Shown one piece after another: positions 1 through 17,271 of a stretch of 32,000 nucleotides of DNA. Position 1 is the first letter of the stretch. The number at the start of each line of letters is the position of its first letter. The stretch covers positions 2,610,001-2,642,000 of the forward strand of contig NC_008789.1 of assembly GCF_000015585.1 (NCBI RefSeq), read 5' to 3'. The DNA comes from Halorhodospira halophila SL1 (GTDB lineage Bacteria > Pseudomonadota > Gammaproteobacteria > Nitrococcales > Halorhodospiraceae). The notes under the pieces were generated by a model that saw only the letters and a program-made list of their open reading frames with translations, had not been told where the DNA came from and did not search any database. A program made the position numbers and the translations under genes.

Positions 1-1
1 C

Positions 2-448
2 GGCCTGGGCGTCGAGGACACCGATGCGCTGAGCGAGGCGGAGGGGGTCGATGACGACGCCGCAGAGTCCGACACCGGGGCCAAAGACGACTCGCCCGCC
101 GATCCGGCTGATACCGCCGGGCAGATCGCCCGCGAGGAACTCGAGTCCCTGGAACAGCAGTTTCGCGAAGATCCCGGCCAGATCACCCGCATGGTGCAGG
201 TACGGCCGGTGATGGGCGACGGCGCCATCCGGGGTTTCCGGCTCAGCGCCATGGATGACCGGGGGGCGGAACTGATGGATCAGCTCGGGCTGCGCAACGA
301 GGACGTGATCACCGAGGTGGAGGGCGTCTCGGTAGCTGATCAGCAGGGGCTGCAGTCCCTGGTCGAGGAGATGCGCGAGGCCTCGCGGGTACGGGTGCGC
401 CTGGAGCGCAACGGCAGCGAGCAAGAGATGACCCTGAGGATCGAGTAA
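2..448 (+). CDS. gspC: Type II secretion system protein GspC, C-terminal part (5' end lies outside the window)
   Basis: Frame 2 is open from the window edge to TAA 446-448. It has a PDZ-like C-terminal segment (GFRLSAM...GLRNEDVITEVEGVSV...VRLERNG). The stop overlaps the gspE ATG (TAATG). Confidence 0.6.
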   Translation, partial: GLGVEDTDALSEAEGVDDDAAESDTGAKDDSPADPADTAGQIAREELESLEQQFREDPGQITRMVQVRPVMGDGAIRGFRLSAMDDRGAELMDQLGLRNEDVITEVEGVSVADQQGLQSLVEEMREASRVRVRLERNGSEQEMTLRIE

Positions 449-1917
449 TGGACGAGATCCCCTTCGCCTTCGCCCGCCGCCACGGCCTGGTACCGCTGGA
501 GATCGGCGACGGCCAGGTCCGCGTCGCCTACCGCACCGGGGTGCAGCCGAGCGCTATCGCCGAACTGCGCCGGCGCCTGGGCCAGCCCCTGGCCCTGGAG
601 CGGGTCGATACCGAGCGCTTCGAGGCACTGCTGCGCGAAGTCTACGAACGCTCCTCCGGCGAGGCGGCACAGGCCATGGAGGGGATCGGCGACGACATGG
701 ACCTGCAGAGCGTGGCCAGCGAACTGGCCGAGCCGCAGGACCTCATGGAGACCGAGGACGACGCCCCGGTCATCCGCCTGATCAACGCCCTGCTCACCGA
801 GGCGATCAAGGAGGACGCCTCGGACATCCACATCGAGACCTTCGAGTCCCGCCTGGTGGTCCGCTTTCGGGTCGACGGCGTGCTGCGCGAGGTCCTCGAG
901 CCGCCGCCGGCCCTGGCGCCGCTGCTGATCTCCCGGGTGAAGGTGATGGCGCGACTGGACATCGCCGAGAAGCGCCTCCCCCAGGACGGGCGCATCTCCC
1001 TGCGCATCGCCGGGCGCCCGGTGGACGTGCGCGTCTCCACCCTGCCCGTCGGTCAGGGCGAGCGAGTGGTGCTGCGCCTGCTCGACAAGCAGGCCGGGCG
1101 GCTCAATCTCACTCATCTGGGCATGGACGAGCGCAACCTGGCCAGCCTCCAGCGGGTCATCCACGCGCCCCACGGCATCCTGCTGGTCACCGGGCCCACC
1201 GGCTCGGGCAAGACCACGACCCTCTACGCCGCTCTGGCCGCCATCAACGACCGCCAGCGCAACATCATGACCGTGGAGGACCCCATCGAGTACTACATCG
1301 ACGGGGTCAACCAGACGCAGATCAACCCGAAGGTGGACATGACCTTCGCCCGCGGCCTGCGCGCCATCCTGCGCCAGGACCCGGACGTGGTGATGGTCGG
1401 CGAGATCCGCGACGTGGAGACCATGGAGATCGCCATCCAGGCCTCGCTGACCGGCCACCTGGTGCTCTCCACTCTGCACACCAACACCTCCATCGGCGCC
1501 GTCACCCGGCTGCGGGATATGGGCATCGAGCCCTTCCTGCTCGCCTCCAGCCTCATCGGCGTCATGGCCCAGCGCCTGGTGCGCCTGCTCTGCCCCGAGT
1601 GCAAAACCCCGTACCAGCCGACGCCCTCCGATCTGGAGCGGCTCGGCATCGACGCCCGGGGGGAACTGCCGACGCTCTACCAGGCCGTGGGCTGCGAGGC
1701 GTGCAACCACCTGGGCTACCGCGGCCGGACCGGGATCTACGACGTGGTGGAGCTCGACCCCACGCTCCGGCAGATGATCCACGACGGCGCCGGTGAGCAG
1801 GATATGGAGCGCTACGCCCGGCGCAGCAACCCCTCCATGGCCGCCGATGGCGCACGGCGCATCCTCAACGGCGAGACCACGGTGGAAGAGGTCTTGCGGG
1901 TGACGCAGGAGGGGTAA
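448..1917 (+). CDS. gspE: Type II secretion ATPase GspE
   Basis: 489 aa. N-terminal GspE-type domain (IPFAFARRHGLV), Walker A GPTGSGKTT, Asp/His boxes, and the tetracysteine motif CPECK...CEACN typical of GspE. Confidence 0.95.
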   Translation: MDEIPFAFARRHGLVPLEIGDGQVRVAYRTGVQPSAIAELRRRLGQPLALERVDTERFEALLREVYERSSGEAAQAMEGIGDDMDLQSVASELAEPQDLMETEDDAPVIRLINALLTEAIKEDASDIHIETFESRLVVRFRVDGVLREVLEPPPALAPLLISRVKVMARLDIAEKRLPQDGRISLRIAGRPVDVRVSTLPVGQGERVVLRLLDKQAGRLNLTHLGMDERNLASLQRVIHAPHGILLVTGPTGSGKTTTLYAALAAINDRQRNIMTVEDPIEYYIDGVNQTQINPKVDMTFARGLRAILRQDPDVVMVGEIRDVETMEIAIQASLTGHLVLSTLHTNTSIGAVTRLRDMGIEPFLLASSLIGVMAQRLVRLLCPECKTPYQPTPSDLERLGIDARGELPTLYQAVGCEACNHLGYRGRTGIYDVVELDPTLRQMIHDGAGEQDMERYARRSNPSMAADGARRILNGETTVEEVLRVTQEG

Positions 1918-1990
1918 CCCGGCACCAAGCCGAACACGGGGCAGAGGCGCCCCTCCGCCCCGCAGCCTTCAGCTTGGCACGAGGCCTTCC

Positions 1991-2311
1991 TCAAGCCGGC
2001 GCGAAGACGTCGCACCAACCGTCCGCGCTGACCAGGACGTCGGCGAAGTCCGGGTGGGAACACTCGCCGTAGCCGCCCTCCACCTCGCCCTCCCAGAACC
2101 TGCAGTCCTGGCACTGCTGTCCGGCCTGGTAGCGGGCGTGGTCCTCGGCATCCGCGGCATCGCCGACGTAGTCGTGGGCGTGGCCGTCGTCGGCCTGCGG
2201 CGCGGCCGTGGCCGTGCGGTGATGCACCAGGGCACTCAGCGGGATGGCGGCGGCCATCAGCGTCGAGGCCTGCAGCAGCCGGCGGCGGTTGTGGTCGATG
2301 GATTCCGTCAT
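1991..2311 (-). CDS. High-potential iron-sulfur protein (HiPIP) with twin-arginine signal peptide
   Basis: ATG at 2311 is preceded by AAGGAG (2321-2326). Tat motif NRRRLLQAS. Mature part has the four-Cys HiPIP pattern (QQCQDCRFW...GECSHPDF...GWCDVFAPA). The longer ORF start at 2413 has no SD and no signal logic. Confidence 0.9.
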
Positions 2312-2374
2312 AACCTCGTCCTCCTTGGCTTTTTCCCACAACTTTTTGAAACCAAGGTCAGCAACCCCCTGTTC

Positions 2375-2410
2375 ACCGCCCCCGGGCAGTCGACCTGCTT
2401 CGGGGGCGGT
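2375..2410 (-). other. Intercistronic GC-rich stem-loop between the large cytochrome gene and the HiPIP gene
   Basis: ACCGCCCCCG (2375-2384) pairs perfectly with CGGGGGCGGT (2401-2410). There is an inner GCAG/CTGC extension and no U-tract on the transcribed strand. Confidence 0.4.
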
Positions 2411-2442
2411 CACTCAAAAGGTATGCCTCGACGTTCACACCA

Positions 2443-5400
2443 CTACTCTTGAGGCACCTCCAGCGGGTACTCACTGTAATTCCTCAAATTGAGATCGGTG
2501 GCTTCGTGGCCTTGAGGCGCCAGCCGCGGGGCGATCCCGCCTCGCTCCCAGATATGCCACCCGAGCACATCTCCGTCGTCCGAAGCCCCTCCCGGTCGCT
2601 CGATCCCGCCATCGTGACAGGAGGTACAGGCAGCCGAGACCGGGCTCATCTTACGGTGCGCACCGATATCGTGGATCTCCGCGTCGCTGATGAAGTAATG
2701 GATTCCATACCAGTCCCCCGTCAGGGCCGTGGAGCCGATCACGCCATCTCCCATGGCTTCGAGCGAAACCGCTGCAGGGAAGTGGCAAGACCAGCAGCTG
2801 TCCTCCCCGGCCGGGAAACTCGTCTTGTTACGGAACTCGTCTCGGACCTGCAGCGGCTCCTGGCGAAAGCCACCGCCAGCCCGGCCCGAGGTATGGACTG
2901 CGTGGATGAGACGTTTGAAATCCGTCGCCTCTTCAAACTTCCCGTCGTGCTCACCAGGCATCTTCAGTTCATCGTAGAGAGCCTTCTGGTCCGCGCCGAA
3001 CGGCGACCCCTCGAATTGCGAGCGGTCCGGCCATGCGGTATCGGTCATATTCGGGGTGTGGCAAGTCACACAGACCTGCGGGTTGTTGGTGCGATTATCC
3101 CCATGGACCGAGAGCTGCATATGGCAGCTACGGCAGCCGAGAACCCCTTGGTTTTGCTGATCGAGGGGCACGTTCTCGTCGTTCACCTCAAACTGCACGA
3201 GTTGAGCACGACCGTCCGTCGCAGCGCGTGCCGGGGTCGACCCGGGCTGGATCTCCCACTCCTGCAGCGGGCTGCCGTCGAAGGCAAAGTCCTCGGCCTG
3301 ACTCGTCAGCCTCAACTCACGGGTATCAAGAATGCCGCCGTTACCGTCTTCAATGTCCCGGGTTATGGTTCCCTCGGCTACGGCAGTTGCAACGGCCCCA
3401 GAATCCGTGAAGTCGAAATCAGCGGCGCTGTAACCGGTGATTTCCTCCCAGCCGAGCTCGACCCTGAACTCACCGCCGCCGAGTTCTTCAACTACGCCAA
3501 CCCCGGTACCAGCAGGCTCACCGCCTTCATCCGTAGCGATACTGACACTGGCGGTCGGGGCGCCAGGCTGGCGATGATCACTAGTGGAGTGAGTGTAGTC
3601 TTTGAACCCTTCGTCCATCCAGGCGAAGAAGACGCTCAGATCCAAATCCTGGTCCCAAAGATTTCCGTTGGCAGCGTCCTCGACGTAGACGACCGCCTCG
3701 AAGCCATCTTCCGTTACCTCCGGAGGACCTCCGTTAAGACCCTCGATCACCACCTCAAAGCGGTCCGCAACCATAGCGTGACGGAGGCCCTGCAGGTGGG
3801 AGCTGAGGAGATGCGGGTCATCATCTACATCGTCACCGTCAAGCGGATCATACGCTCTCAACGGTGCAAGGCTTCCAGCGGGCCCGACGCCCACATGGGT
3901 CTCCAGGTCCTCATTTATCCAGTCGCTAAGGGGCTTCGACGCACCCGCAGCGTGGCACCCGGACGAGCAGGTCTCATGCGGGGCATAAGTCGTATCTTCT
4001 TCACCGTGGCGGTGGCTCTCCAGCCAGTCTGTGCCGACATCCAAGTAGTCTGCGCCCCACAGGGCCTCTACGGGCTCACTACTATCGTTTACGTGCCAGT
4101 ACTGATCATCGTGGCACGAACGACACGCCTGCACGTTGAAGACATCGTGCCAGTTGTCTCCCTGAGCGGTTACTTCGGCGGTATCGAGCCGGTCGGCGAC
4201 GTACCCCTCCTCAAGCCCGAAGTCTTCCTCGGCTAAGTGGTCCAGTAAAGCCGCACTATCCTCGCCCTGATGGCACTTCACACAGTTGGTGATGCCCTTG
4301 TCGAAATCCGTTCTCTCCGCAACGCCCTCGCGTGCGTCGGTATTCCAGATCCCATCCTGGCCGGGCGACGGACCCTGCGGGAACCGAACCGTACTCCAGT
4401 CGCTAGCCGCCGGGGCGGCGGCCAGCAGGTCCACCTCTGCATCTCCGTCCACGCCATAGGCGGGGAGATCAGAGCCACGGTGGATGCGGTGGACGAATTG
4501 CTTGAAGTCCCCGCTGCGCCCGGACGCTGCATAAATGTGGCCCGGGTTGTGGCAAGTGACACACTGCTCAACCTCGGAGCGGTTGCCGCCGTGCTGGGAA
4601 AAACCGTTGTGGCAGCTATTGCAGCTCTCCGTGGTAACGACATTGCGCACCGCCGGGACGTCATCCCGGTCCGTGGTCTGATGCATCATATCGACCGGAT
4701 CGTAGGCGCCCGGATCGATAATCGCCGCGTTCTCGACCTTCCCCTCGATCCACGCATAGTTCGCCACCGGCTCTGGGACGAAGTCGTAGGTCTCGTTATA
4801 GGCCGTGACCCCGCTCACCTCCAGCCCGAGTCGGTGGGTATGACGGGCATCGAACTCCACGACGAACTGATCATCCTCTGTGACAAATACGCCCTGGGGC
4901 AGCGCCGTGCCATCGGGCCACCAACAGATCACTTCCTGTGTATGGATGCCGTCTTCGGTGTTGGTCTCGTCGGTGCAGTTGATGTGCTGACCCAGGCCTC
5001 CATGATCCGAGATCTCCGTAAAGGCACCGCGCTCAATAGTGAGGGTCTCGTCTACGCCAGACGCAGTAATACTGACCTGTTCGTTCTCGCGCCATTCCCA
5101 GTTCGTGAGCTCCTGGTCCTCGAGATCGACTCGGAGCGTCTCGCCGTCCACCATCTCGACCCCCGCGGTGACCGGCTCCGGCGCCGGGTAAAGCACGGCC
5201 GTATCGGCGTCACCGGCCCGGAAAGGCACGGAGTCCGCCCTGTGCGGGATGTTGAAGTAGTTCTGCCAGTCGTGGCCGATTTCGTTTTCATCGATTTCAC
5301 CGGCCGGATCGTCGTCTTCTGAAGCGCGCAACCGCGGGGAAAGCCGCGCGAACGTCACGGTGAAGTCCCCGGCTTGTCTGTCCGACAGATCCTGGGACAG

Positions 5401-5778
5401 GCTGATGGTCAACTCCGGCCCATCGTTGTCTTCGAATTCGACACGCTCGATCAGATTCTCATCCTCACCGCCGGGTATCTGATCGCGGGTTGACCCCTGA
5501 GCCAAATCGTGGACCTCGTTGATCGGCTGTGGATCCTCACCGGGCTCGTGGCAGTCGGCGCACTCCTCACTTCGCGGATCCAGATCCTCGATGTCCGCCC
5601 ATTCACCCTCATGGAAACTCGTGGCCGCGGCGGTTCCACCATCACCGCCTTCCTCCACGATCTCCGTGGTCTCGTCGCGGTCACAGGCGGAGAGGGCCAG
5701 GACCGCTGCGATGGCGCAGCTGGTGACCAGGCCCCGACGCCCATACCGTGATCGTTGTGTTGCGATGGTCTCGGTCAT
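2443..5778 (-). CDS. Large multihaem c-type cytochrome lipoprotein, OmcA/MtrC-like (9 CXXCH plus 1 CX3CH)
   Basis: ATG 5778 with AGGAGGGGG SD (5783-5791). Signal peptide ends in the lipobox LSAC. Haem motifs: CADCH, CNSCH, CVTCH, CVKCH, CRSCH, CSSGCH, CRSCH, CVTCH, CWSCH, CTSCH. The module CxSCH-x5-HG(G/D)NR-x5/6-CVTCH(N/T)P is duplicated (4540-4623 and 3049-3135). Confidence 0.85.
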   Translation of the reverse strand: MTETIATQRSRYGRRGLVTSCAIAAVLALSACDRDETTEIVEEGGDGGTAAATSFHEGEWADIEDLDPRSEECADCHEPGEDPQPINEVHDLAQGSTRDQIPGGEDENLIERVEFEDNDGPELTISLSQDLSDRQAGDFTVTFARLSPRLRASEDDDPAGEIDENEIGHDWQNYFNIPHRADSVPFRAGDADTAVLYPAPEPVTAGVEMVDGETLRVDLEDQELTNWEWRENEQVSITASGVDETLTIERGAFTEISDHGGLGQHINCTDETNTEDGIHTQEVICWWPDGTALPQGVFVTEDDQFVVEFDARHTHRLGLEVSGVTAYNETYDFVPEPVANYAWIEGKVENAAIIDPGAYDPVDMMHQTTDRDDVPAVRNVVTTESCNSCHNGFSQHGGNRSEVEQCVTCHNPGHIYAASGRSGDFKQFVHRIHRGSDLPAYGVDGDAEVDLLAAAPAASDWSTVRFPQGPSPGQDGIWNTDAREGVAERTDFDKGITNCVKCHQGEDSAALLDHLAEEDFGLEEGYVADRLDTAEVTAQGDNWHDVFNVQACRSCHDDQYWHVNDSSEPVEALWGADYLDVGTDWLESHRHGEEDTTYAPHETCSSGCHAAGASKPLSDWINEDLETHVGVGPAGSLAPLRAYDPLDGDDVDDDPHLLSSHLQGLRHAMVADRFEVVIEGLNGGPPEVTEDGFEAVVYVEDAANGNLWDQDLDLSVFFAWMDEGFKDYTHSTSDHRQPGAPTASVSIATDEGGEPAGTGVGVVEELGGGEFRVELGWEEITGYSAADFDFTDSGAVATAVAEGTITRDIEDGNGGILDTRELRLTSQAEDFAFDGSPLQEWEIQPGSTPARAATDGRAQLVQFEVNDENVPLDQQNQGVLGCRSCHMQLSVHGDNRTNNPQVCVTCHTPNMTDTAWPDRSQFEGSPFGADQKALYDELKMPGEHDGKFEEATDFKRLIHAVHTSGRAGGGFRQEPLQVRDEFRNKTSFPAGEDSCWSCHFPAAVSLEAMGDGVIGSTALTGDWYGIHYFISDAEIHDIGAHRKMSPVSAACTSCHDGGIERPGGASDDGDVLGWHIWERGGIAPRLAPQGHEATDLNLRNYSEYPLEVPQE

Positions 5779-5820: not shown

Positions 5821-7866
5821 TCAGAACTTGAAGCCCACCGATCCGACGACCAGGTGAGCGGTGTAGTCGTAGGCCTCCCGCCCCATGAGCACGAATTCGC
5901 CGTCGTCGTCGGGGTCGGGGTCGGGGCCAAAGCCTTTCATCCAGTCCTGCTCTTCAAAGCGCTGACCGACGTAGGCGAGGCGCACCCATCCGGAGTCGGT
6001 GATCTGGTGCTCGCCGTAGAGCTGGAGCTGGGTGAGACGGGTCTCGAGGGTCGGGTAGCGCTGGTCGCCGTCGGGGTCGGCGACGAGGATGTCGCTGTCC
6101 GAGGTGGCGTAGAGCAGCTCGGTACCGAGCGTCCAGCGCTGATCGTTGTCGAGGCTCGTCTCGCCGCCGACCCCGAGGGTGAGGATCTCCTCCTCCTGGG
6201 TCAGGCTGCGGTCGTCACCGCCCTGGGCGCGATCCCGCTCCTCGTAGGTGAGGAAGGCGTAACCGCTGGTGGTCTCTACCGGGAAGTAGTCGGCGGAGAG
6301 GGTGACGGCGCTGCGGTCATCGCCCTCAAGGCCGGCATCCGAGTGCACATAGTCATCCTCGAGGTAAGTGAACTCGGCACCTAGAGCAAGCTCGGGGATA
6401 AGGTGGTAGGTAGCGCTCGCACCGATATCCAGCCGCGTCAAATCGGCCATGTGGTAAAGATCGAGCTCCGGAATATTATCGGCCAGAGCCGAGCCACCCC
6501 CGGCATAGCTCGCCCCCCACCGGTCCATATACGCACCGCGCACGGTTATGCTCAGATTGTCGGTGGGCTGACTGCGCAGACGGCCGCGGTAGGTGTCTTC
6601 GATGGTTTCGTCGTCGGCGTAGGTACGATCTTTCTCCTCGTACTGGTAACCGACCATCAGATTACTGCGCATCGGCAGCCGGAAGTCCGCATCGAACCCC
6701 GCCCTGTGGCGGGTCCAGTCGTGAACGCGCGTGGAGCGGTTCATGGTCGGCAGGTCGTCCCACTGAGCCGACTGGTTGTCCCGGTCCTCGTACTCGTACT
6801 CCGCCTTCACCCGTACGCGGGGGTGGAAGCGATGTGTACCCTGGAGACCTAGACGGGTCGTATCGATCCGGCCATCGAGGTTGTTGCCGAGGACATCCAG
6901 GACGTCCTCGTAGGCCGAATCGTCGATGAAGGACTCATCCTGCTCCGCGCGCCCGTAGACCAGGCTGCCGCTGACCGACGTGCCCGGTTGCAGGGCGTAC
7001 GCCATGGAGCCACTGAACTGATGGTAGCGGTTCTCCGGGGGCCGGGACAGGCGGTGCCGATCACCCTCCTCTAGATTGGTCCAGTCATCCGCTCGGGGGT
7101 CGTCGACGTCGAAAGAGTCTCCGCTGAGCTGCGTGAACTCGGAGAGGTGATAGCCAACCCGCGCCTGGAGGGCATCACCGGCGTACTCCGCACCGAGGTC
7201 GAGCTGGTCGGTGCGCTGATCCACCGGGGCGGGCATCTGGAACCCCCGCGGCGCCGCATCGCTCCATATGCCATAGCCGCGGTACTGGTGCCCCTCCTTC
7301 TCCTCGCGGCTGAAACCAACATCGAGTTTCCAGTTGTCGCCGAGGACGCGATGGGCCCCCACCGCTGTGCGTTCACGCTGGGTGCCCACTTCCCAGTCAC
7401 GGCTGTCGGTCTCGACGTCGCCGGTCACTTGAGGCAACCGCAGATCACCCCCCTCATCCCGCAACGGGCTGACCACATCGTGATCGTAAGATCGCGGCAG
7501 CTCGTCGTACTGCAGATGCAGCCCGTAGGACCCCTGTACCCCGTAGCGGCCACGCAGGCGCCGCGAATCCAGCCCCAGATCGCGCCCCTCAAGGCGGCCA
7601 TACCGTCCTTCCTGTTCGTCCTCGCCGCGATAGCGCAGATCAAGCTCCAGGGCCGGGTAGAGCCCGTCCTCGACGGGCCCCGTGTAGCGGCGGAAGTGGC
7701 TGTTGTCCTGATCTAGATAGCCGAAGCCGAGCCAGATCTCCGACTCCGTCGGACCCACAAAGGTCGCGGAGGACTCGGGCGTGCCGGCATCGGCGCCGGC
7801 CACGATGAATAATGCCGTCGCCGATAGCGCCAGTGAGCTTCCCAATTTGGTGGTGGTTCGAGTCAT
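5821..7866 (-). CDS. Outer-membrane beta-barrel protein, MtrB/PioB family (cytochrome-associated porin)
   Basis: 681 aa. Sec signal peptide (ALFIVAGADA). Alternating Y/G/D-rich beta-strand pattern throughout. C-terminal VGFKF with terminal Phe. Lies between two multihaem cytochrome genes with 31- and 42-nt gaps. Confidence 0.8.
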   Translation of the reverse strand: MTRTTTKLGSSLALSATALFIVAGADAGTPESSATFVGPTESEIWLGFGYLDQDNSHFRRYTGPVEDGLYPALELDLRYRGEDEQEGRYGRLEGRDLGLDSRRLRGRYGVQGSYGLHLQYDELPRSYDHDVVSPLRDEGGDLRLPQVTGDVETDSRDWEVGTQRERTAVGAHRVLGDNWKLDVGFSREEKEGHQYRGYGIWSDAAPRGFQMPAPVDQRTDQLDLGAEYAGDALQARVGYHLSEFTQLSGDSFDVDDPRADDWTNLEEGDRHRLSRPPENRYHQFSGSMAYALQPGTSVSGSLVYGRAEQDESFIDDSAYEDVLDVLGNNLDGRIDTTRLGLQGTHRFHPRVRVKAEYEYEDRDNQSAQWDDLPTMNRSTRVHDWTRHRAGFDADFRLPMRSNLMVGYQYEEKDRTYADDETIEDTYRGRLRSQPTDNLSITVRGAYMDRWGASYAGGGSALADNIPELDLYHMADLTRLDIGASATYHLIPELALGAEFTYLEDDYVHSDAGLEGDDRSAVTLSADYFPVETTSGYAFLTYEERDRAQGGDDRSLTQEEEILTLGVGGETSLDNDQRWTLGTELLYATSDSDILVADPDGDQRYPTLETRLTQLQLYGEHQITDSGWVRLAYVGQRFEEQDWMKGFGPDPDPDDDGEFVLMGREAYDYTAHLVVGSVGFKF

Positions 7867-7897: not shown

Positions 7898-8845
7898 TCA
7901 GCGCTTGAAGAAGGCGCCGCCCGGGTGATTGGAGCCGTGAACCTCGGAGTGGCAGTTGGTACAGCCCTGCCCCCGTGTCATGAACTGCCCCTGCGACAGG
8001 CCTTCGTGATCCGGCCCAAGCAAATCACCGGGATGACCTGTGGTGACGTGACAGGACTGGCAAAGCTGGGCCGTGCGCGCCTCCAGCATGTTCGGGTGGA
8101 TCGAGCCGTGCGGGTTGTGGCAATGGGTGCAGTCTTCGGCCACCGGCTGGTGCTCCCAGAGGAACGGTCCCCGATACTCCGCGTGGCAGTTATGGCAGGT
8201 CTCATTCACCCCCCCGCCGCGGAGCATCGCGTGGCCAGTGGTGCCGTGGGGGTTGTGGCAGTCCGTGCACTCCACCTGGCCTTCCCGGACCGGATGGTGG
8301 TGCGGCCGGTTGAAGTCCACCCGACGCTCCTGGTGGCAACTGCTGCACAGCGTCAGCTGATCCTCCTCGCGGAGCAGGGTGTCGTTGTTGCTGTGCATGT
8401 TGTGGCAGTCGACGCAGGCCATGTCCTGGAACTCGTGAGCGCCACCATCCCAGTGCATGCGGTCCCCGCCGCTGTGGCAGTCCAGGCACGTCTCGTTGGC
8501 CTGGCTGGTGCTCACGTCTTCGCCGATCTCGAAGAAGTGCTCCCAGCCGTCGCCGTGACACTGGTAGCAGTAGTTGCCATCCTCTCGCGTCTGGCCCGCT
8601 GGTGTGCGTGGATCGGACCCCACGGCGTGGGGCGTCTCCTCCATGCGGCCGATGTGGGCGCGCAGATCCTCGGCACGGCGCTCGGCCACAACCGGTGAGA
8701 GACCACGCACCTCCTCGACGAGCTCCTCGAGCTGTTCGGGATCAAGGTCCTCACCCCCAGCCACCGGGGCGATCACCAGCAATGCGAAACAGGCCGCAGC
8801 GCACCCAAACGGCATCAGACGCCGGATCAGTCTTTGCGCGAACAA
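7898..8845 (-). CDS. Periplasmic multihaem c-type cytochrome, MtrA/DmsE/PioA/MtoA family (nine CXXCH motifs)
   Basis: Nine CXXCH motifs. The C-terminus CTNCHSEVHGSNHPGGAFFKR is the family hallmark. Preferred start is TTG 8845, 6 nt after AGGGAGGAG (8852-8860), which gives a normal signal peptide (FAQRLIRRLMPFGCAAACFALLVIAPVAG). An alternative is ATG 8815. The track start at 8911 overlaps the predicted promoter. Confidence 0.85.
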   Translation of the reverse strand: MFAQRLIRRLMPFGCAAACFALLVIAPVAGGEDLDPEQLEELVEEVRGLSPVVAERRAEDLRAHIGRMEETPHAVGSDPRTPAGQTREDGNYCYQCHGDGWEHFFEIGEDVSTSQANETCLDCHSGGDRMHWDGGAHEFQDMACVDCHNMHSNNDTLLREEDQLTLCSSCHQERRVDFNRPHHHPVREGQVECTDCHNPHGTTGHAMLRGGGVNETCHNCHAEYRGPFLWEHQPVAEDCTHCHNPHGSIHPNMLEARTAQLCQSCHVTTGHPGDLLGPDHEGLSQGQFMTRGQGCTNCHSEVHGSNHPGGAFFKR

Positions 8846-9130: not shown

Positions 9131-10495
9131 ATGCGCGGATGCGTCCTGGTCGTGGATGACCATCGCGAGGTGGTCTACGCCGTCCGGCGGCTGCTGCAGA
9201 GCCGCGGGCTGGAGGTGATCAGCGCCCCCTCCGCCGCCGAGGCGGAGCCGCTGGTGCCCCGGGCAGACGCGCTGATCCTGGATATCCAGCTGGAGCAGGA
9301 CAACGGCCTGGCGCTGCTTCAACGCCTGCGCAGCGCCGGGGATGAGACACCGGCGGTGGTCCTGTCGGCGCACACCTTCCCCGACAACGTGGTCGAGGCG
9401 AGCAAGCGCGGCGCGATGCAGATCCTGGCCAAGCCCATCGAGGCCGAGGCCCTGGTCGGGGCCGTGGAAGAGGCGTTGAGCCAGACGCACTCCGACGCCT
9501 CGGCGTCCGCCCTGAGCGCCGAGGCCCACGATGTGCTCGGCACCTCGGCGGCGATGATGGAGGTCTTCAAGGCCCTGGGCGTGGCCGCGGCCAACGACCT
9601 CAACGTCCTACTCACCGGCGAAACCGGGGTCGGCAAAGAGGTTTCGGCGGAGCTCGTCCACCGCCACTCCCACCGGGCCGACGGCCCCTTCGTGGCCATC
9701 AACTGCACCGCCATGCCCGAGAGCCTCCTCGAGGCCGAACTGTTCGGCCACGCCAGCGGCGCCTTCACCGGCGCCAGCCGGGCCGCCGAGGGCAAGGTGG
9801 AGGCCGCCGCCGGCGGCACCCTGTTCCTGGACGAGATCGGCGACATGCCGCTGGCCTTTCAGGCCAAGCTGCTGCGCTTCCTGGAGGACAAGCGCTTCTA
9901 CCGCCTGGGGGAGTCGGCGCCGCGTCACGCCGATGTGCGCGTGATCGCCGCCACCAACCGCCAGCTGCTCGGCGCGGACGCCAGTCAGTTCCGCAGCGAT
10001 CTCTACTACCGCCTGGCGCAGATCCCGGTGCACATCCCGCCGCTGCGCGACCGGTTGGAAGACGTGCCGGCGCTGATCGAGGTCTTCATCCGGGCGGCCA
10101 ACCAGGAGATGGGGCTGGATATCCACGGTATCACCCCCGAGGTCCGCCAACAGGCCCAGGGCCACAGCTGGCCGGGCAACGTCCGCGAGCTCAAGAACGC
10201 CGTCTACCGCGCCGCAGCGAAGCGCCAGCGGGGGCTGATCGATACCCTGGAGCTGGCCGGCGCGGCCGCCGAACCCGCCGGTGACAGCGACTTCGACACC
10301 GCCCTGGACCGCGCTCTGGACCGTGCCCTGGCCCAGGACCGGCTGCCGGAGCTGCTCAACGACCTGGAGCGCCGGGCCGTCCAGCGCGCCCTGACCCACT
10401 ACAACGGCAACAAGAGCCGGGTGGCCGAGGCCTTGAACGTCTCCCGCAACACCCTGCGCGCCCGGCTGCAGGCCATGCAGGAGCCGACGGATTGA
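9131..10495 (+). CDS. Sigma-54-dependent response regulator (NtrC family bacterial enhancer-binding protein)
   Basis: Receiver domain (VVDDH, LILDIQ, AKP). AAA+ domain with Walker A GETGVGKE, the GAFTGA loop and ELFGH. C-terminal Fis-type HTH ([16 protein letters not shown]). SD GGAGGG at 9121-9126. Confidence 0.9.
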
Positions 10496-10515
10496 GGTGC
10501 TGGCTGCCACGCAAC

Positions 10516-11970
10516 ATGGCCGTCCGGCTCGGCGCCACCTTCCTGCTGGTGACCCTGATGGTCGCCCTGCCGCTGACGCTGTGGTTCGACCACTACGCGA
10601 GGGGCATGATCGAGGCCGGCGTCGAGCGCGCCGTCGAGGGGGCCGACGCGCGGGTCATCCTCGACGCCGCGGTGGTCTCGGAGGCTTTCGATCGCGTGCG
10701 CGGCCTGGCGCTGCTGGTGGTGGGGCTCAGCGCCCTGCTGGCCGCCGGCGTCGGGGCGCTGATCGCGGCGCGCTGGCGGACGCGGATGCGCAGTATCGTC
10801 GAGCAGGGCCACCGCCGTGCCCGGCGCGCCCAGGGCGACGGCAAGCAGCCCGCGCGCTGCCCCGGCACACCCCGGCCACGCCCCGGCGAGGACGAACTGG
10901 ACGCCGTCGAGCGGCAACTGCTCAACACCGTCGACCAGCTGGGCCGCTCGCAGTGGCTGCTCGACAGCGTCGAGGACCTGGTGATGCTGGTCGACGCCGA
11001 TGGCACCATCCGCCACGGTAACGCCGCCATCGGCACACACTGCGCGAGTTGTCCGGTTCCCGACTGCATGGGGGCCACGGTGCCGGATCTCCTCGGCGGC
11101 GGACTGTGGCTGCGCATCCGCACCGGGATCGAGCGCGCCGAGACCGGGACCTTCGAGCAGGAGGTGCGGCTGGACGGGCGGTCCTGGCCGGCCCTGGTCT
11201 CCTACCGCCGTCTCGGGGAGCTGACCCTGGTCAAGATCACCGACCTGAGCGAGTACCGCCGGCTGAACGAACATCTGGAGAAGCTCCAGGCCCTCTCCAC
11301 CCTGGGCGAGATGTCCACCGAGCTGGCCCACGACATCAAGAACAGCATCGTGCCGGTGCGCCTGCTCTGCGAGGTGGCCCCGCTGGAGGCCGAAGACCGG
11401 CAGGCGATCTTCCGCTCGCTGGATCACATCCACGAGCTGGTCAATGACTTTATGGCCTTCGGCTGCGGGCGCAGCAGCGAACCGCGCAGCGGCGCTCTCA
11501 CCGAGATCCTGCAGAGCTGGACCACGGTCCTGCGCAACGAGGCCCAGGCCAAGGGCGTCTCCCTGACGGCGGCGTTCGCCGACGCGCGGGTCGAACTGCC
11601 GGGGGGCTTTCGGATCGTCTACGCCAACCTGGTGCGCAACGCGGTCCAGGCCGTACCCGCCGGCGGCCAGGTGTGGGTGGACGCCCGAGTGGATCGCCGC
11701 GACACCCTGGTGCTGCAGGTGGCGGACAACGGCCCGGGCATCCCCGAGGCGCTACGCGAGCGGCTGTTCGAGCCCTTTGCCACCAGTCGCGCCGACGGCA
11801 CTGGGCTGGGACTGCCACTGGTCCAGCGCTATGTGCAGGAGGCCGGCGGTGAGGTGGTCTGCGACTCCACCCCCGGCACCGGGACCAGTTTCACGGTCCA
11901 CTGGCCGGGGGCCGGGGAAACCACAGGCCGTACACTCACCCACCACGCCGGGATCGCCTCTGCGGGCTGA
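10516..11970 (+). CDS. Sensor histidine kinase (two TM segments, PAS-like domain, HisKA, HATPase_c)
   Basis: H-box ELAHDIKNS, N-box NLVRNAVQA, G1 DNGPGIP, F-box FEPFAT, G2 GTGLGL. Start is ATG 10516. An alternative is TTG 10492, overlapping the regulator stop. Confidence 0.85.
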   Translation: MAVRLGATFLLVTLMVALPLTLWFDHYARGMIEAGVERAVEGADARVILDAAVVSEAFDRVRGLALLVVGLSALLAAGVGALIAARWRTRMRSIVEQGHRRARRAQGDGKQPARCPGTPRPRPGEDELDAVERQLLNTVDQLGRSQWLLDSVEDLVMLVDADGTIRHGNAAIGTHCASCPVPDCMGATVPDLLGGGLWLRIRTGIERAETGTFEQEVRLDGRSWPALVSYRRLGELTLVKITDLSEYRRLNEHLEKLQALSTLGEMSTELAHDIKNSIVPVRLLCEVAPLEAEDRQAIFRSLDHIHELVNDFMAFGCGRSSEPRSGALTEILQSWTTVLRNEAQAKGVSLTAAFADARVELPGGFRIVYANLVRNAVQAVPAGGQVWVDARVDRRDTLVLQVADNGPGIPEALRERLFEPFATSRADGTGLGLPLVQRYVQEAGGEVVCDSTPGTGTSFTVHWPGAGETTGRTLTHHAGIASAG

Positions 11971-12040
11971 CGCCTTGGATCCTTCCGTATCAGGCGGCTA
12001 GGCGCTGGATGGGTCCAAACCGCTCGTGACGACACTGCCG

Positions 12041-12070
12041 TTGACACGCCACGCAGGTTTGGAGTATACT
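12041..12070 (+). promoter_or_regulatory. Near-consensus sigma-70 promoter upstream of the NYN gene
   Basis: TTGACA (12041-12046), 18-nt spacer, TATACT (12065-12070). Confidence 0.5.
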
Positions 12071-12125
12071 TTTTCCACGACTCACCCCGTGACCGCTTGG
12101 TTCGACCAAGTGCTCTCGGGGCGAC

Positions 12126-12155
12126 AAGCCGCCTCCGGGCGGCTTTGTCATTTCT
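12126..12155 (+). terminator. Terminator-like hairpin in the leader of the NYN gene (or 3' end of a short RNA, or of the kinase operon)
   Basis: AAGCCGCC (12126-12133), loop TCCG, GGCGGCTT (12138-12145), followed by TGTCATTTCT. A second hairpin CTTGGT-TCG-ACCAAG lies at 12096-12110. Confidence 0.35.
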
Positions 12156-12166
12156 GGAGATGGGTT

Positions 12167-12823
12167 TTGCGAACCGTCGTCTACGTCGATGGGTACAACC
12201 TGTACTACGGACTGCTGAGAAAAACCGCGTTCAAGTGGTTGGATCTCGTCGTTCTGTTCCGCGATCACGCCCTGGATCCGCAAGTCGATCTGGTGGAAGT
12301 CCGATACTACACCGCCCCAGTGCTTGGGCGAATGTGCGACGACCCCAAATCACCCCAGCGCCAACGGCGCTACCTACAGGCGTTGCGCACGATGCACCCC
12401 GAACGACTTTCCATCATCGAGGGCAAAATCATCGCAACGACCCCCTTCAAGCGCCTAGCCCAACCTATCCCAGAGCGTCCGGATCTCGAGCGAGTTCAGG
12501 TCCTTGACTTCCATGAGAAAAAAACCGATGTCAACCTCGCCGCTGACTTAATCGCCGGGTCTTGGGTTGGTTCGTATGAGCAGGCGGTTGTGTGCAGCAA
12601 CGACACAGATCTCGACGCGGCACTTGCGACCGTACGCCGCTATCAGCCCAGTATCCGCCTAGGCCTCGTCGCGCCCATCCCCGGCCATGATCACCGGCGC
12701 ATCCCAGCCGACCTAGCCAAGCACACACATTGGTCCAAAACCCTTAGCCCCGTACACCTGAGCAACGCTCAACTACCTGAACGCATCCCACACTCAACTC
12801 TTCGAAAACCCGATACATGGTAA
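12167..12823 (+). CDS. NYN-domain (PIN-like, LabA/DUF88-type) protein, putative RNase
   Basis: N-terminus RTVVYVDGYNLYY is typical of NYN proteins. Later KKTDVNLAADL and VVCSNDTDL acidic motifs. Start TTG 12167 lies 6 nt after GGAGA (12156-12160). The track start at 12026 would overlap the promoter and hairpins. Confidence 0.7.
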   Translation: MRTVVYVDGYNLYYGLLRKTAFKWLDLVVLFRDHALDPQVDLVEVRYYTAPVLGRMCDDPKSPQRQRRYLQALRTMHPERLSIIEGKIIATTPFKRLAQPIPERPDLERVQVLDFHEKKTDVNLAADLIAGSWVGSYEQAVVCSNDTDLDAALATVRRYQPSIRLGLVAPIPGHDHRRIPADLAKHTHWSKTLSPVHLSNAQLPERIPHSTLRKPDTW

Positions 12824-12981
12824 GTGGTTTGGCCCTGATAGGCTCGGGTCCATCCCGAGCCACCCGCCACTCTGGCACCACCCGATCGCCATGGACACCA
12901 GCCCATGAAGACGCCCGGAACCCGCCCTGCTGACGCCCTGATCCGGAACGCTGGATGGCGCGGTACTGCCGAGGTCCGCCG

Positions 12982-13569
12982 ATGAGGCGCAGGTGGGCGA
13001 CGACGGCCGGCTGTCTGCTGGTGGCCGGGGTGGCCGCGGGCGGCAACGCCGCCGCGGACGAGCGCGCCTACGGCGGGGTCCTCGAAGACGGCTGGCGGGT
13101 AGCCGTGGTCACCGGGACGCTGGCGGTATCCGACGGCACCGATACCGGAACGGCCCGCACCGTGGCCCTGGCCAACGGGGCCCATGTGATCAACGATCGT
13201 GGGCGGTATTGGGACTTCGAGGTCGGCCTGGCCTACACCCAGACCGCCGCCCACCCGAAGGGGGCCGGCGGGGAGACCGTCCGCGTCAACCAGACGGACG
13301 CCTACTACCAGGCGCGGCGGCTATTCGGCGAGTCGCCCTGGTTCCTCGGCTGGCACGTGGCGCTGACGCGCACGAGCATCCAGCCGGCCGACACCGGCTC
13401 CGATCGTGACCTGGGATTCACCGCCGGGGTCATCGCCGGCTACCGCGGGTCCGGCCGTTTCGGCTTCCAGGTCGACGCCCTGGTGACGGACCCCGATCCG
13501 GAGTTTGGCGACCTGACCCTTGGCTACGAGACACGCCAGTACCGCGCCTCGCTGCAGTTTCGCTTCTGA
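12982..13569 (+). CDS. Small outer-membrane beta-barrel protein (OmpW/OMP_b-brl-like), function unknown
   Basis: ATG 12982 lies 7 nt after GAGG. Signal peptide RRRWATTAGCLLVAGVAAGGNAAA. Alternating hydrophobic strands. C-terminal SLQFRF. Confidence 0.55.
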   Translation: MRRRWATTAGCLLVAGVAAGGNAAADERAYGGVLEDGWRVAVVTGTLAVSDGTDTGTARTVALANGAHVINDRGRYWDFEVGLAYTQTAAHPKGAGGETVRVNQTDAYYQARRLFGESPWFLGWHVALTRTSIQPADTGSDRDLGFTAGVIAGYRGSGRFGFQVDALVTDPDPEFGDLTLGYETRQYRASLQFRF

Positions 13570-13578
13570 CCCCCCGGG

Positions 13579-14412
13579 CTAAAGGGTCCCTTCGATACCC
13601 ACGTGCACCCCGTCTTCCCGGCGGGGCCCGGCCATCTCGATGCTGCGGGTCAGGATGTCCGCGGCGCCGTCCCGCGTATCCACGACGGCATCCAGCTCAT
13701 AGGAACCGGCCGGATCCAGCCGCCAGCCCCCGCCCAACTGAAGCGGGCCACCGGTATCGCCGAGCTCACCAACCAGCGCGCCGTCCTCGGCCCGCAGCTG
13801 AGTGGTCAGGCCGCCGAGCTCAACGTATTCGTCAACAGTGACGGCGGCGTCGTGCCAGGCGAGGCGGCCATCGACCTGCTGCAGGCGACCTCCACGGTCG
13901 ACCCGTAAGGTGTCGATGGCAAAGGCGAACGTCCCGGCGAGCAGCACTTCCTCGCCGAACTGGGCGGCCAACCGGCTCCACGGCGCCGCCGGGAAGCGGC
14001 CGTGGACATCGCGCAGGCTCAGCCCGCCGGCGGCGAGGGTCGCCCGCCCCTCGGCGAACCCGTCCCCCATTGAGGCCTCGATCGTTGCCTCCAGCCGACC
14101 GGTGAGCAGCGCCGCCGGACGGACGCGCCAGCGGATCTGCTCCGCCTGCAGGTCTGTCGTCCCGACCTGGATGCCCTGGCCGTCCCAGACGGTACCGTCC
14201 AGAGTGCCCACTTGCACCTCGGGCGGCACGGACAGGTAGCGCTCGGCCAACGACCAGGCGTGGGCCGCCGGCCAGTGCGCCAGGAGGAAGGCGCAGTAGG
14301 CACCGAGGCCCAGCACCGTGAACCCCCAGAATCGTCGCCCCGGCCACCTGAGCCGGGGCGCACCCCGGCTTCGACGTCGCAACAACCGGACCCACGGGCG
14401 GGCGGCGGTCAC
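13579..14412 (-). CDS. gspN: Type II secretion system protein GspN
   Basis: 277 aa with a single N-terminal TM segment. The GTG start overlaps the gspM stop (GTGA). Its position after gspM is as in canonical gsp operons. Confidence 0.65.
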   Translation of the reverse strand: MTAARPWVRLLRRRSRGAPRLRWPGRRFWGFTVLGLGAYCAFLLAHWPAAHAWSLAERYLSVPPEVQVGTLDGTVWDGQGIQVGTTDLQAEQIRWRVRPAALLTGRLEATIEASMGDGFAEGRATLAAGGLSLRDVHGRFPAAPWSRLAAQFGEEVLLAGTFAFAIDTLRVDRGGRLQQVDGRLAWHDAAVTVDEYVELGGLTTQLRAEDGALVGELGDTGGPLQLGGGWRLDPAGSYELDAVVDTRDGAADILTRSIEMAGPRREDGVHVGIEGTL

Positions 14413-14933
14413 GTGCCCACCTCCAGGGTCAGGCGCACGTTGACCAAGCCGTCCTCTTGCGTCCGCTCCACAGTCAAGGCATCTACCTCAACGCCGGCGG
14501 CGCGCTGCAGGCCGTCGAGCCAGTTCATGAGCTCATCGAAGGGGACCCGGTCCATCCACACCCGGAGGGTGCCATCCCCGTCCGGCTGCACCCGGCTGAG
14601 CTGATCATCGATCCCGGCCTCCCGGGCGGCCCGATCCACCAGGCTGAGCAGGGATCGCTCGTCGGTGACCGGCTCTGCCGAACCGTTATCCCCATCATGG
14701 GCGTGGATCTCTTCCGCGGCCGAGCGCATCCAGGCCAGATCCTGGCGCTGCTCGGCGACCTGAGCTTGGAGCTGGTCCCGACGCTCGGTCAACGGCTCCC
14801 AAACCGCCACGTACGGCACCACCACCAGCACCAGCAAGCCGCCGCTACCCAGCAGCCAGCGTTCCCGAGGGTTACGCGCCGACCAGAAGCGTTCAGCCTC
14901 GGCGCGGAGCTGCTGCAGCGCCTCGCGGATCAC
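14409..14933 (-). CDS. gspM: Type II secretion system protein GspM
   Basis: 174 aa. N-terminal FWSARNPRERWLL plus a TM segment, typical of GspM. The GTG start overlaps the gspL stop (GTGA). Confidence 0.8.
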   Translation of the reverse strand: MIREALQQLRAEAERFWSARNPRERWLLGSGGLLVLVVVPYVAVWEPLTERRDQLQAQVAEQRQDLAWMRSAAEEIHAHDGDNGSAEPVTDERSLLSLVDRAAREAGIDDQLSRVQPDGDGTLRVWMDRVPFDELMNWLDGLQRAAGVEVDALTVERTQEDGLVNVRLTLEVGT

Positions 14934-16162
14934 GCCGACTCCTCTTCGCGAATGACCAGGCGACCGTCCACGCGACCCTCCCGCGCCGACGCCGAGCGGA
15001 TCTCGACGGCCAGGCCGGCGTCGCCCTCCAGCGCTCTCCGCAGGCCCTCCAGGGTCTCGATGTCCACGGTATCCAGTTCCACCTCCAGGCTGCCGTCACG
15101 CAGCCGCAGGGTCCGCACCCGGAGTCCGTCGCCGGCCAGGGCGGGTGCCGCCTTGCCCAGCAGGCGGGCGAGGTGCCCGCCCCCCTCACCGCCGCGATCG
15201 CCGCGTATCGTGCGCAGGTGGTGCTCCATCTGCACCCGCGGATTGACCACCCGACCTTCCGGGAAGGTCTCCCGGTAGACCTGCTCGATCTCCGCCGTGA
15301 GCTGTTCAGCCTCGCGTTCCAGCCGCTGGACCTCCAGCCACTGCAGCGCCCCCTGACCGAGCAGCCAGACAGCGAGGAGCGCAGCCGCTGGGCGTAAGGG
15401 CCGCCATAACCAACCCCAGCGCTCGCGGCGGGCGTACGGCCCCTGGCGCAGGTCAACGGCGGTGCGCGGGTGGTACCAGGCGGCCAGACGAGGCAGGAGA
15501 TCGGCATCCACCGCCCGCGACTCCAGCTCCGGCGCCGGCTCCGCCGCTGCCGCCGCCGACTCCAGGCGCGTCTGCAGCGCCGCCGGTGCCTGCAGCGTGA
15601 GGCGCTGCGGCGGTCGCTCGGCAACGGCCAGCGCGGCCTCGAGGGTCACCGGCGCCGAGGCCGGCTCCAGGGCAAAGCCGTCCGCCCCGAGGGCGAGCAC
15701 CACCTGGTTGCGGTCCGCCTCGACGCGCCAGTGCCCGGAGTCGGCCGGGAGCAGCCCGTTTTCCGGGACCAGGGCGTCGACCTCCAGCCCCAGGGATGCG
15801 AACTCATCGAGCCACGCCTGCATGGCAGCGTGCTCGACGACGGCGGCGTGCACGCCGCCGTCCGCATCGATCCGCCGGATGGCGAAGTGCAGCGCCTCCA
15901 GATCGCTGGTCAGCTGCTCCTCCAGCGCGTACGGCAAGGCCTGGAGCACGCGCGGACGGCGCCGAGTGGGCAGCCAGACCCGGGTCACCAGGACCTGCGC
16001 CCCGGGGACGACGCCGACACAGCGCCGGCCAGCGCGGTGGGGTGCGACCACCTCCGGCCGCAGAAGACCTTGATCCAGGATCGCGCCCCCCTCGGCAACG
16101 ACGGCAAAGCGATACCGGCCATCGTCGCACCGCGGGAGCTGGATCAGCAGATACTCGGGCAT
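14930..16162 (-). CDS. gspL: Type II secretion system protein GspL
   Basis: Start MPEYLLIQLP at ATG 16162. Conserved LQALPYALEEQLTSDLEALHFA segment. Single TM segment in the C-terminal third. Confidence 0.85.
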   Translation of the reverse strand: MPEYLLIQLPRCDDGRYRFAVVAEGGAILDQGLLRPEVVAPHRAGRRCVGVVPGAQVLVTRVWLPTRRRPRVLQALPYALEEQLTSDLEALHFAIRRIDADGGVHAAVVEHAAMQAWLDEFASLGLEVDALVPENGLLPADSGHWRVEADRNQVVLALGADGFALEPASAPVTLEAALAVAERPPQRLTLQAPAALQTRLESAAAAAEPAPELESRAVDADLLPRLAAWYHPRTAVDLRQGPYARRERWGWLWRPLRPAAALLAVWLLGQGALQWLEVQRLEREAEQLTAEIEQVYRETFPEGRVVNPRVQMEHHLRTIRGDRGGEGGGHLARLLGKAAPALAGDGLRVRTLRLRDGSLEVELDTVDIETLEGLRRALEGDAGLAVEIRSASAREGRVDGRLVIREEESA

Positions 16163-16193
16163 GGGGTCACCGTACCATCGCCACTCGGCCCCG

Positions 16194-17054
16194 CTAACAG
16201 GGGCGGAGACGGCGCACCACCACTTCGCCGCTCGGGGCGTGCACCACACTGCACTGGTGGTGGAGGCGGCCGTCCACCTCCAGCCTCAGGGCCACCTGGA
16301 CGTAATCGCCCAGGCCCTCATCCCCCGGGTCCATATCCTCGGGATCCGGCAGGTTGTAAGCCTCGCGCAACCGTTCCGGCGCAGCCAGGGCGTTGAACCG
16401 GGTGCCCACCTCCGGTAACGCAGCCACATACGGCTCCAGGATGCGGTATGAGTCGGCATCCACGCCGCGGATCTGCAGCAGTTCACTGGGCACCGCCAAG
16501 GGCCGATTGGAAGGGCGGTAGGGGGGGGCCTGCCGGCTGTACCAGTCGTCTTCCACCTCGGGATCAGCCCAGTCGCGCAGGGCACGGATGACCTCATCCG
16601 GGTCCAGCCGGAAGTCGCCGTGGTCGCGGTTAAGGGCCTCGACCAGTTCGATGAAGCCGACCTCGGTCTCCTCATCCTCCTCGTCGATGAGGTTATTGAG
16701 GTTGATCCGGCAATGGAGATCTTCCAGGCGCACCTCCACGACGGCTCCCCCCACCTCTGTAGTAAAAGGCGGTGTACGACAGTCTTCGTCGAGCATCTGC
16801 GCCGCCTGATCGGTGTCGATCTGCGCCTCCTGGACCGCCTCGGCGGCCAGCGCCTCGACGCTCATGGCGTGGAGCTGCGCCTGGCTGGCCGCGTGGCTGG
16901 TCTGCGCCCGGCGCAGGTCGATCTGGTGACTGGCGGTCAGCGAGACAGCCGCCACCGAGGCCAGTGCCACCACCAGTAGGGCCGTGATCAGCGCAACACC
17001 GCGCTGAGTCCAAGGTGGAGTCTGAGGGCCAGGAATATCGCCATACGCTCTCAT
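16194..17054 (-). CDS. gspK: Type II secretion minor pseudopilin GspK
   Basis: QRGVALITALLVVALASVA prepilin-like N-terminus and GspK-type body. Start is ATG 17054 (GTG 17060 also possible). Confidence 0.8.
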   Translation of the reverse strand: MRAYGDIPGPQTPPWTQRGVALITALLVVALASVAAVSLTASHQIDLRRAQTSHAASQAQLHAMSVEALAAEAVQEAQIDTDQAAQMLDEDCRTPPFTTEVGGAVVEVRLEDLHCRINLNNLIDEEDEETEVGFIELVEALNRDHGDFRLDPDEVIRALRDWADPEVEDDWYSRQAPPYRPSNRPLAVPSELLQIRGVDADSYRILEPYVAALPEVGTRFNALAAPERLREAYNLPDPEDMDPGDEGLGDYVQVALRLEVDGRLHHQCSVVHAPSGEVVVRRLRPC

Positions 17055-17271
17055 GGTCACTCAAGCTTACACCGAGCGTCATGAAGCCGTCTCGATCCGG
17101 TCGCAGGGCGGCGTCGCCGTGCAGCGACAATCTCGAGCACTGCAGATCAGCAACTTAGCGCGCGCTCCCTGCCGTAGTGTTGCCTGACGGCGACAAAACG
17201 GGGCGCCCCGGCCTGCCTCCGCTCCGGGCCGCCGATCCTATCTTCTTGTTTTCCCGGTTTTTTACAGATGT

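Follow-up and report, generated by a model that had tools for sequence, protein, structure and literature searches.

The gsp genes beside the mtr cluster of Halorhodospira halophila SL1 are most probably the two operons of a complete type II secretion system, in a layout standard for the genus

Halorhodospira halophila SL1 carries, in the 32,000-nucleotide stretch of DNA analysed here (contig NC_008789.1, positions 2,610,001 to 2,642,000 of the forward strand; the window), two groups of gsp genes for a type II secretion system (T2SS). They lie on either side of a cluster encoding an MtrA-type cytochrome, an MtrB/PioB porin, a very large MtrC-like multihaem lipoprotein and a HiPIP. We consider it very probable that this T2SS is complete and encoded by two operons, namely an eight-gene gspD-F-G-H-I-J-C-E operon, of which the final 1.9 kb lie in the window, and a four-gene gspK-L-M-N operon, that this layout is standard for the genus and independent of the cytochrome genes, and that the neighbourhood of gsp and mtr genes is inherited synteny. 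An earlier description made from the letters of the window (the sequence-only reading) had taken the T2SS for a fragmented one. The window starts inside gspC, so that the rest of the operon is invisible from within it, and the fragmentation is therefore an artefact of the window edge.

The gsp genes that can be seen in the window are well supported members of their families. GspE matches the equivalog model TIGR02533 over its full length (707.9 bits, cut-off 630.25), GspL reaches 243 bits against TIGR01709 (cut-off 65) and GspK 142 bits against NF037980 (cut-off 130), while GspM and GspN belong to the T2SSM (176 bits) and T2SSN (117 bits) families. The window opens about 200 codons into gspC, and the GspC fragment aligns at 79.6% identity with residues 207-349 of GspC (349 aa) on the metagenomic contig L045; the GspC proteins of relatives measure 334-357 aa. 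When the 32 kb were searched by tblastn with queries from a close relative, no match to GspD, F, G, H, I or J was found, in agreement with the earlier observation that gspD is lacking between gspC and gspE, gspF after gspE, and gspG-J upstream of the gspK block. No gsp gene lies upstream of gspK within the window.

The components in question are found immediately to the left of the window in the protein accessions of H. halophila. GspE is 100% identical to ABM63140, and the same series holds GspF (ABM63134), GspG (ABM63135), GspH (ABM63136) and GspJ (ABM63138), and continues to the MtrC-like protein (ABM63142) and GspL (ABM63151), both 100% identical to the window proteins. The gaps in the series fit GspI (63137), GspC (63139), HiPIP (63141) and the eight window genes between mtrC and gspL, and a second H. 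halophila assembly (MBK1729313 to MBK1729330) has identical accession offsets. The search for gspD and gspF-J elsewhere in the genome, proposed along with the idea of fragmentation, thus places F, G, H and J next to GspE. The order in H. halophila is (D)-F-G-H-I-J-C-E, HiPIP, mtrC, mtrB, mtrA, regulator, kinase, NYN-like gene, outer-membrane protein and gspN-M-L-(K). By spacing and orientation, the locus has three transcription units; its features are listed below, and the right half of the window consists of unrelated housekeeping genes.

1..448 (+): 3' part of gspC, the last 148 codons with the PDZ domain, start left of the window (NCBIfam GspC models, Pfam PDZ_2)
448..1917 (+): gspE, T2SS ATPase, final gene of gspD-F-G-H-I-J-C-E (TIGR02533, 707.9 bits)
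1991..2311 (-): HiPIP, 106 aa, twin-arginine signal, final gene of the mtr operon (PF01355, 74.6 bits)
2443..5778 (-): MtrC/OmcA-like multihaem lipoprotein, 1111 aa (PF22113, 143 bits)
5821..7866 (-): MtrB/PioB outer-membrane porin (PF11854, 600.6 bits, full length)
7898..8845 (-): mtrA, MtrA-type periplasmic multihaem cytochrome, 315 aa, nine CXXCH motifs (Paired_CXXCH_1, 118 bits)
8896..8910 (-): sigma54-type -24/-12 promoter-like site TGGCCCGCCTTTTGC, 5' of mtrA (pattern match)
9131..10495 (+): sigma54-dependent response regulator with receiver, AAA+ and Fis helix-turn-helix domains, divergent from mtrA (Pfam)
10492..11970 (+): PAS histidine kinase, partner of the regulator (Pfam HATPase_c, PAS_4)
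12026..12823 (+): NYN-like gene (NYN, 22.7 bits, under the gathering threshold of 24.2)
12955..13569 (+): small beta-barrel outer-membrane protein, convergent on gspN (OMP_b-brl, 25.5 bits, under the gathering threshold)
13579..14412 (-): gspN (PF01203, 117 bits)
14409..14933 (-): gspM (PF04612, 176 bits)
14930..16162 (-): gspL, 410 aa (TIGR01709, 243 bits)
16194..17060 (-): gspK, first gene of gspK-L-M-N (NF037980, 142 bits)

The stop codons of gspE and gspN are 11.66 kb apart. The content of this interval as read from the letters (HiPIP and cytochrome operon, regulators, NYN gene, small outer-membrane protein) is matched by the Pfam and NCBIfam scans, with the NYN and outer-membrane protein hits below gathering. 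The TAATG overlap by which gspC runs into gspE is present. Translational coupling of gspK-L-M-N through GTGA overlaps was found at the L/M and M/N junctions but not at K/L, where the annotated GspL start (ATG 16162) leaves a gap of 31 nt.

Comparison with relatives shows how the two operons are arranged in the genus. Contig L045, whose GspE and MtrC-like proteins are 97.8% and 86% identical to those of the window, carries mtrB'-mtrC followed by convergent gspE-C-J-I-H-G-F-D and bamD. In H. halochloris, bamD and gspD-F-G-H-I-J-C-E are separated by about 29-30 kb from gspK-L-M-N on the opposite strand. In the space between the two operons, some 18 kb of other genes come first; mtrC-B-A follow, and after these the regulator, the kinase and the outer-membrane protein. 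The bracketing of the cytochrome cluster by two gsp blocks is confirmed, and it recurs in convergent form in H. halochloris and, on the gspE side, in L045. In H. abdelmalekii, a class IV aminotransferase gene and glnE come after gspD-F-G-H-I-J-C-E, and the outer-membrane protein and an ABC transporter come after gspK-L-M-N, which is on a separate contig; for both operons, the surrounding 10 kb are free of Mtr homologues. A metagenome-assembled genome (L040) shows the order engB, S8 peptidase, gspK-L-M-N, outer-membrane protein, a 907-aa beta-propeller protein, kinase and regulator, and no mtr genes were found within reach of its gspK-L-M-N.

Compared with the canonical Gsp/Pul/Xcp systems, of which the gspC-N operons of Klebsiella and Vibrio are examples, the same twelve core components (C, D and E-N) are present with strong family matches, while the canonical order C-D-E-F-G-H-I-J-K-L-M-N is replaced in Halorhodospira by D-F-G-H-I-J-C-E and a separate K-L-M-N. 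Other rearrangements occur in related families. In the outgroup Thiohalophilus, gspF-gspD are divergent from bamD-gspK-L-M-N-G-H-I-J-C-E, and from this arrangement it follows that the J-C-E end and the K-L-M-N module are older than the genus Halorhodospira. Alkalilimnicola has gspC-D, a solitary gspE, and gspF-G-H-I-J followed by an S8 peptidase gene. The canonical E ... K-L-M order is retained in the more distant Gammaproteobacteria of the same scan. As to the ancestral order of the two operons, the two green Halorhodospira species give conflicting indications by their cysNC and bamD flanks. All components come from known families, and the gsp order is a modest organisational variant.

A gene for an S8 subtilisin-like peptidase adjoins gspK, or follows gspJ in Alkalilimnicola, in all relatives examined (L035 5829..8318; L037 5982..8585; L040 4996..7308; L047 20876..). 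It is missing in H. halophila (window 17061..17857), where a single gene, for a very acidic secreted protein of 81 aa (17371..17616, +), lies between engB and gspK.

Three points weigh against a complete system in inherited synteny. To the left of the window, the gene order is deduced from accession numbers and from relatives, with gspD, gspI and the 5' part of gspC of H. halophila inferred. Two deep branches of the genus have the bracket, as has, independently, the metagenomic locus L098, and proximity of gsp and mtr genes may thus carry a selective advantage. Finally, the GC content at third codon positions (GC3) of the mtr genes, 0.72-0.82, is lower than that of their neighbours, 0.85-0.94, and the mtr genes may therefore have been acquired horizontally at this site long ago.

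One alternative is that selection keeps the gsp-mtr-gsp neighbourhood together, the T2SS serving as an exporter dedicated to the giant MtrC-like lipoprotein and the whole being a functional module of secretion system and substrate. We regard this as unlikely. It would accord with the conservation of the bracket in H. halophila and H. halochloris and, for its gspE side, in L045, and with the aspartate at position +2 after the lipobox cysteine, which within the family is seen in the Halorhodospira proteins alone. By the rules established for Escherichia coli, aspartate at +2 is a signal for Lol avoidance and retention in the inner membrane, and it is also present in PulA, a lipoprotein secreted by a T2SS. 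Further in favour of a module stands Shewanella, where the surface display of MtrC/OmcA needs type II secretion (PMC1974784), a precedent invoked by the sequence-only reading and backed by the literature.

To gauge how common the association is, an alignment of the large MtrC-like family was run against metagenome contigs; this gave 80 loci (0.9 Mb; L048 is the same contig as L045), which were then searched for Gsp proteins. True gsp genes lie beside mtrC at one of the 79 other mtrC loci. This is L098, an independent locus where gspD-E-F, with NCBIfam equivalogs above cut-off, are convergent on mtrCAB, and it counts for a module; the remaining 78 loci are without gsp genes, and a single match in 79 is about what chance would give for a cluster of about 12 kb in a genome of a few Mb. 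Matches to gspE and gspF beside mtr at L050 and L051 belong to a type IV pilus operon, pilB-pilC-pilD-coaE. Against a module also speak H. abdelmalekii, which retains both gsp operons without adjacent mtr genes, and L128, which has the next closest relative of the cytochrome and where this MtrC-like gene stands beside ccm genes and the regulator pair and no gsp gene is found. Moreover, the S8 peptidase gene is a steadier neighbour of gspK or gspJ than the mtr genes are, and the mtr operon has its own predicted promoter and regulators.

Since gsp genes accompany mtrC at so few loci, their adjacency is little evidence for a pairing of secretion system and substrate, and the suggestion of such a pairing from physical nesting gains little by it. 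The gsp/mtr bracketing is best read as inherited, lineage-specific synteny within Halorhodospira, and the T2SS is evidently not dedicated to Mtr. The lipoprotein nature of the MtrC-like protein and the precedent of Shewanella nevertheless make the T2SS its most likely export route, and it is plausible, by analogy, that the protein depends on the T2SS to reach the surface.

A second alternative, put forward by the sequence-only reading, is that insertion or inversion of the cytochrome island broke a once contiguous gsp operon. This is very improbable. The two gsp blocks are indeed convergent and just 11.7 kb apart, the GC3 of the MtrC-like, MtrB and MtrA genes (0.72, 0.80 and 0.82) is below that of the gsp and regulator genes (0.80-0.94), mtrCAB clusters have been reported to be mobile (PMC8805035), and the presence of K-L-M-N in one operon with G-H-I-J-C-E in Thiohalophilus means that an earlier rearrangement did happen. 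However, the comparison by which the idea was to be judged, that of gsp synteny in relatives, is answered by H. abdelmalekii, where both operons, D-F-G-H-I-J-C-E and K-L-M-N, recur in exactly this form and neither has mtr genes beside it; the split is therefore not the work of the cytochrome cluster. On both sides the island is bordered by the 3' end of a whole operon, and it interrupts neither of them; the corresponding gap in H. halochloris holds 18 kb more of unrelated genes. Marks of insertion were looked for at the segment, and it has no tRNA gene, insertion sequence (IS) element or integrase and no direct or inverted repeats at its flanks. The lower GC3 makes it possible that the mtr genes were acquired horizontally long ago, in keeping with the mobility reported for such clusters (PMC8805035), but such an acquisition, if real, predates the divergence of H. 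halophila and H. halochloris and is not the cause of the gsp split.

That the T2SS is a decaying, incomplete and non-functional remnant, as the six genes visible in the window (C', E, K, L, M and N) and a GspK covering positions 1-215 of a 307-position NCBIfam model might suggest, is scarcely credible, because every visible gsp gene is an intact open reading frame above family cut-offs, GspF, G, H and J of H. halophila exist with adjacent accessions, and orthologues of like length are kept across the genus.

The proteins of the mtr operon belong to known families. The MtrC-like protein scores 194.1 bits against TIGR03507, below the cut-off of 209.3, and matches the Pfam MtrC-MtrF domain II/IV in two stretches (143 bits). 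It carries nine CXXCH and one CX3CH haem motifs, spread 1 + 5 + 4: an N-terminal extension has a single motif (C73ADCH), the first MtrC-type domain has five, among them the CX3CH motif of Halorhodospira, and the second domain has the other four. Its lipobox is LSAC with Cys32, a cysteine conserved in 28 of 29 family members. The aspartate that follows (residues 32-33, window 5680..5685 region) is found in the three Halorhodospira members, while the other members have S, F, M or L at this position. The family as a whole consists of lipoproteins of about 1000-1200 aa, with about 37 full-length matches of 28-40% identity. The MtrB/PioB porin matches PF11854 with 600.6 bits over profile positions 1-635 of 635. 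The mtrA gene starts with TTG, preceded by the Shine-Dalgarno sequence AGGGAGGAG. Its product has nine CXXCH motifs in H. halophila as well as in H. halochloris (L037 17159..18181) and L050 (6916..7869), an acidic N-terminal stretch replacing the first haem in these nine-motif proteins; the MtrA of L098 (5995..6942), the partner of an MtrC of normal size, has ten.

The gene for HiPIP at the end of the operon encodes a HiPIP domain protein (PF01355, 74.6 bits) in which the C-terminal pattern of the four cluster cysteines is visible; a 175-aa open reading frame at 1812..2339, also considered as HiPIP, is an off-frame artefact, the real gene being the 106-aa open reading frame. HiPIP is missing from the mtr clusters of L045 and H. 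halochloris. The locus on L045 is otherwise collinear (GspE 98% identical), and the gap between mtrC and gspE is 79 nt there (3718..3796), compared with 1918..2442 in the window. The HiPIP gene has a GC3 of 0.91, like native genes, and from these features it looks like a native gene that was recruited to the mtr operon in H. halophila. Green Halorhodospira species have no HiPIP genes at all, and the presence of HiPIP beside MtrABF in H. halophila has been noted before by authors who took the combination of HiPIP and Mtr as a sign that Fe(II) is oxidised and not that Fe(III) is reduced (PMC8877833).

Like the MtrCAB system of Shewanella oneidensis, the cluster pairs a porin of the MtrB/PioB family with an MtrA-type cytochrome on the periplasmic side and an MtrC/OmcA-type lipoprotein at the surface. 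It differs in the size of MtrC, 1111 aa against about 670 aa in MtrCAB, with the N-terminal extension and its one haem motif, and in the nine CXXCH motifs of MtrA, of which MtrCAB systems have ten. In the PioABC system, used by Rhodopseudomonas palustris TIE-1 for phototrophic Fe(II) oxidation, a single operon encodes an MtrA-like cytochrome, a porin of the MtrB/PioB family and a HiPIP, and to our knowledge no MtrC-type surface lipoprotein is part of it. H. halophila shares with it an operon of cytochrome, porin and HiPIP in an anoxygenic phototroph, and adds the very large MtrC-type lipoprotein. Its A-B-C gene order is the one published for the 'Group 7' MtrCAB clusters of the Ectothiorhodospiraceae (Baker et al., 2022, PMC8805035), although the HiPIP gene at the operon end sets it apart from MtrCAB and Group 7 clusters alike. 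Type II secretion genes are not mentioned in the main text of this paper or of PMC8877833.

The regulation of the mtr operon appears to be separate from that of the gsp genes. A search of both strands of the 32 kb for TGGCNC-N5-TTGC yields a single match, TGGCCCGCCTTTTGC, against 0.35 expected by chance. It is located in the intergenic region of mtrA and the response regulator, on the mtrA strand, about 50 nt upstream of the TTG start. The operon is thus predicted to have a sigma54-type promoter of its own, and this unique site together with the adjacent sigma54 activator suggests that it is autonomous from gsp. A simple scan for sigma70 promoters and terminators at the operon boundaries gave nothing above the expectation from shuffled sequence. 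Orthologues of the response regulator adjoin mtrA in H. halochloris and the MtrC-like gene in L128. The latter locus (L128 1..13048) carries an MtrC-like gene (1015 aa, 36% identical) without mtrAB, directly after ccmA-I and the orthologous regulator and kinase pair, an arrangement from which it appears that the regulator pair tracks cytochrome and ccm genes and not gsp genes.

Two further genes lie in the interval. The NYN-like gene has a GC content of 0.58 and a GC3 of 0.65 against a background of 0.70 and 0.90 and a GC3 of about 0.85-0.94 in its neighbours, and tblastn gave no match (E<=1e-6) at any of the loci of relatives that were compared. Its annotated 5' end contains a strong sigma70-like site (12041..12070) as well as a hairpin (12126..12145). 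The gene is probably a recent insertion, and its true start probably lies downstream of 12026. The small OmpA/OmpW-like outer-membrane protein is convergent on gspN in all four genomes of the Halorhodospira group, with or without nearby mtr genes (orthologues at L035 12641..13363, L037 13513..14100 and L040 12588..13172). The sole tRNA gene in the window, a tRNA-Gly (CCC) at 27699..27772 (+), is distant from the gsp/mtr locus.

Taken as predicted, the separately transcribed mtrA-mtrB-mtrC(like)-HiPIP operon would encode an electron conduit of the porin-cytochrome type whose surface component is a decahaem lipoprotein, and the kinase and the sigma54 activator would most likely switch it on. MtrA would sit inside the MtrB porin, the Gsp machinery would, to judge from Shewanella, probably take the MtrC-like lipoprotein to the cell surface, and HiPIP, as a periplasmic high-potential carrier, would connect the conduit with the electron chain of photosynthesis. 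The small outer-membrane protein travels with gspN.

Parts of this picture are not new: all gsp genes and the multihaem cytochrome are annotated in the genome, and the MtrABF-HiPIP cluster is in print. What is corrected here is the completeness of the T2SS, whose gap is an effect of the window edge, and what is put on record is the non-canonical two-operon gsp order of Halorhodospira. Of the sequence-only reading as a whole, the placement of the genes and the bracketing stand, fragmentation and a split caused by the island are not supported, and the functional link is plausible by precedent. Gene adjacency should not count as support for a dedicated pair of secretion system and substrate. A more far-reaching view would be that gsp/mtr/gsp in the Halorhodospiraceae is a selected module, in which the T2SS is the obligatory exporter of a large Asp+2 MtrC-like lipoprotein otherwise held in the inner membrane, and which together with the nine-haem MtrA and, in H. 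halophila, the recruited HiPIP would form a conduit for electron uptake (phototrophic Fe(II) or mineral oxidation) in an extreme halophile; we think this quite unlikely. Independently of it, the nine-haem MtrA, the enlarged MtrC and the aspartate at +2 may be of interest to the field of extracellular electron transfer.

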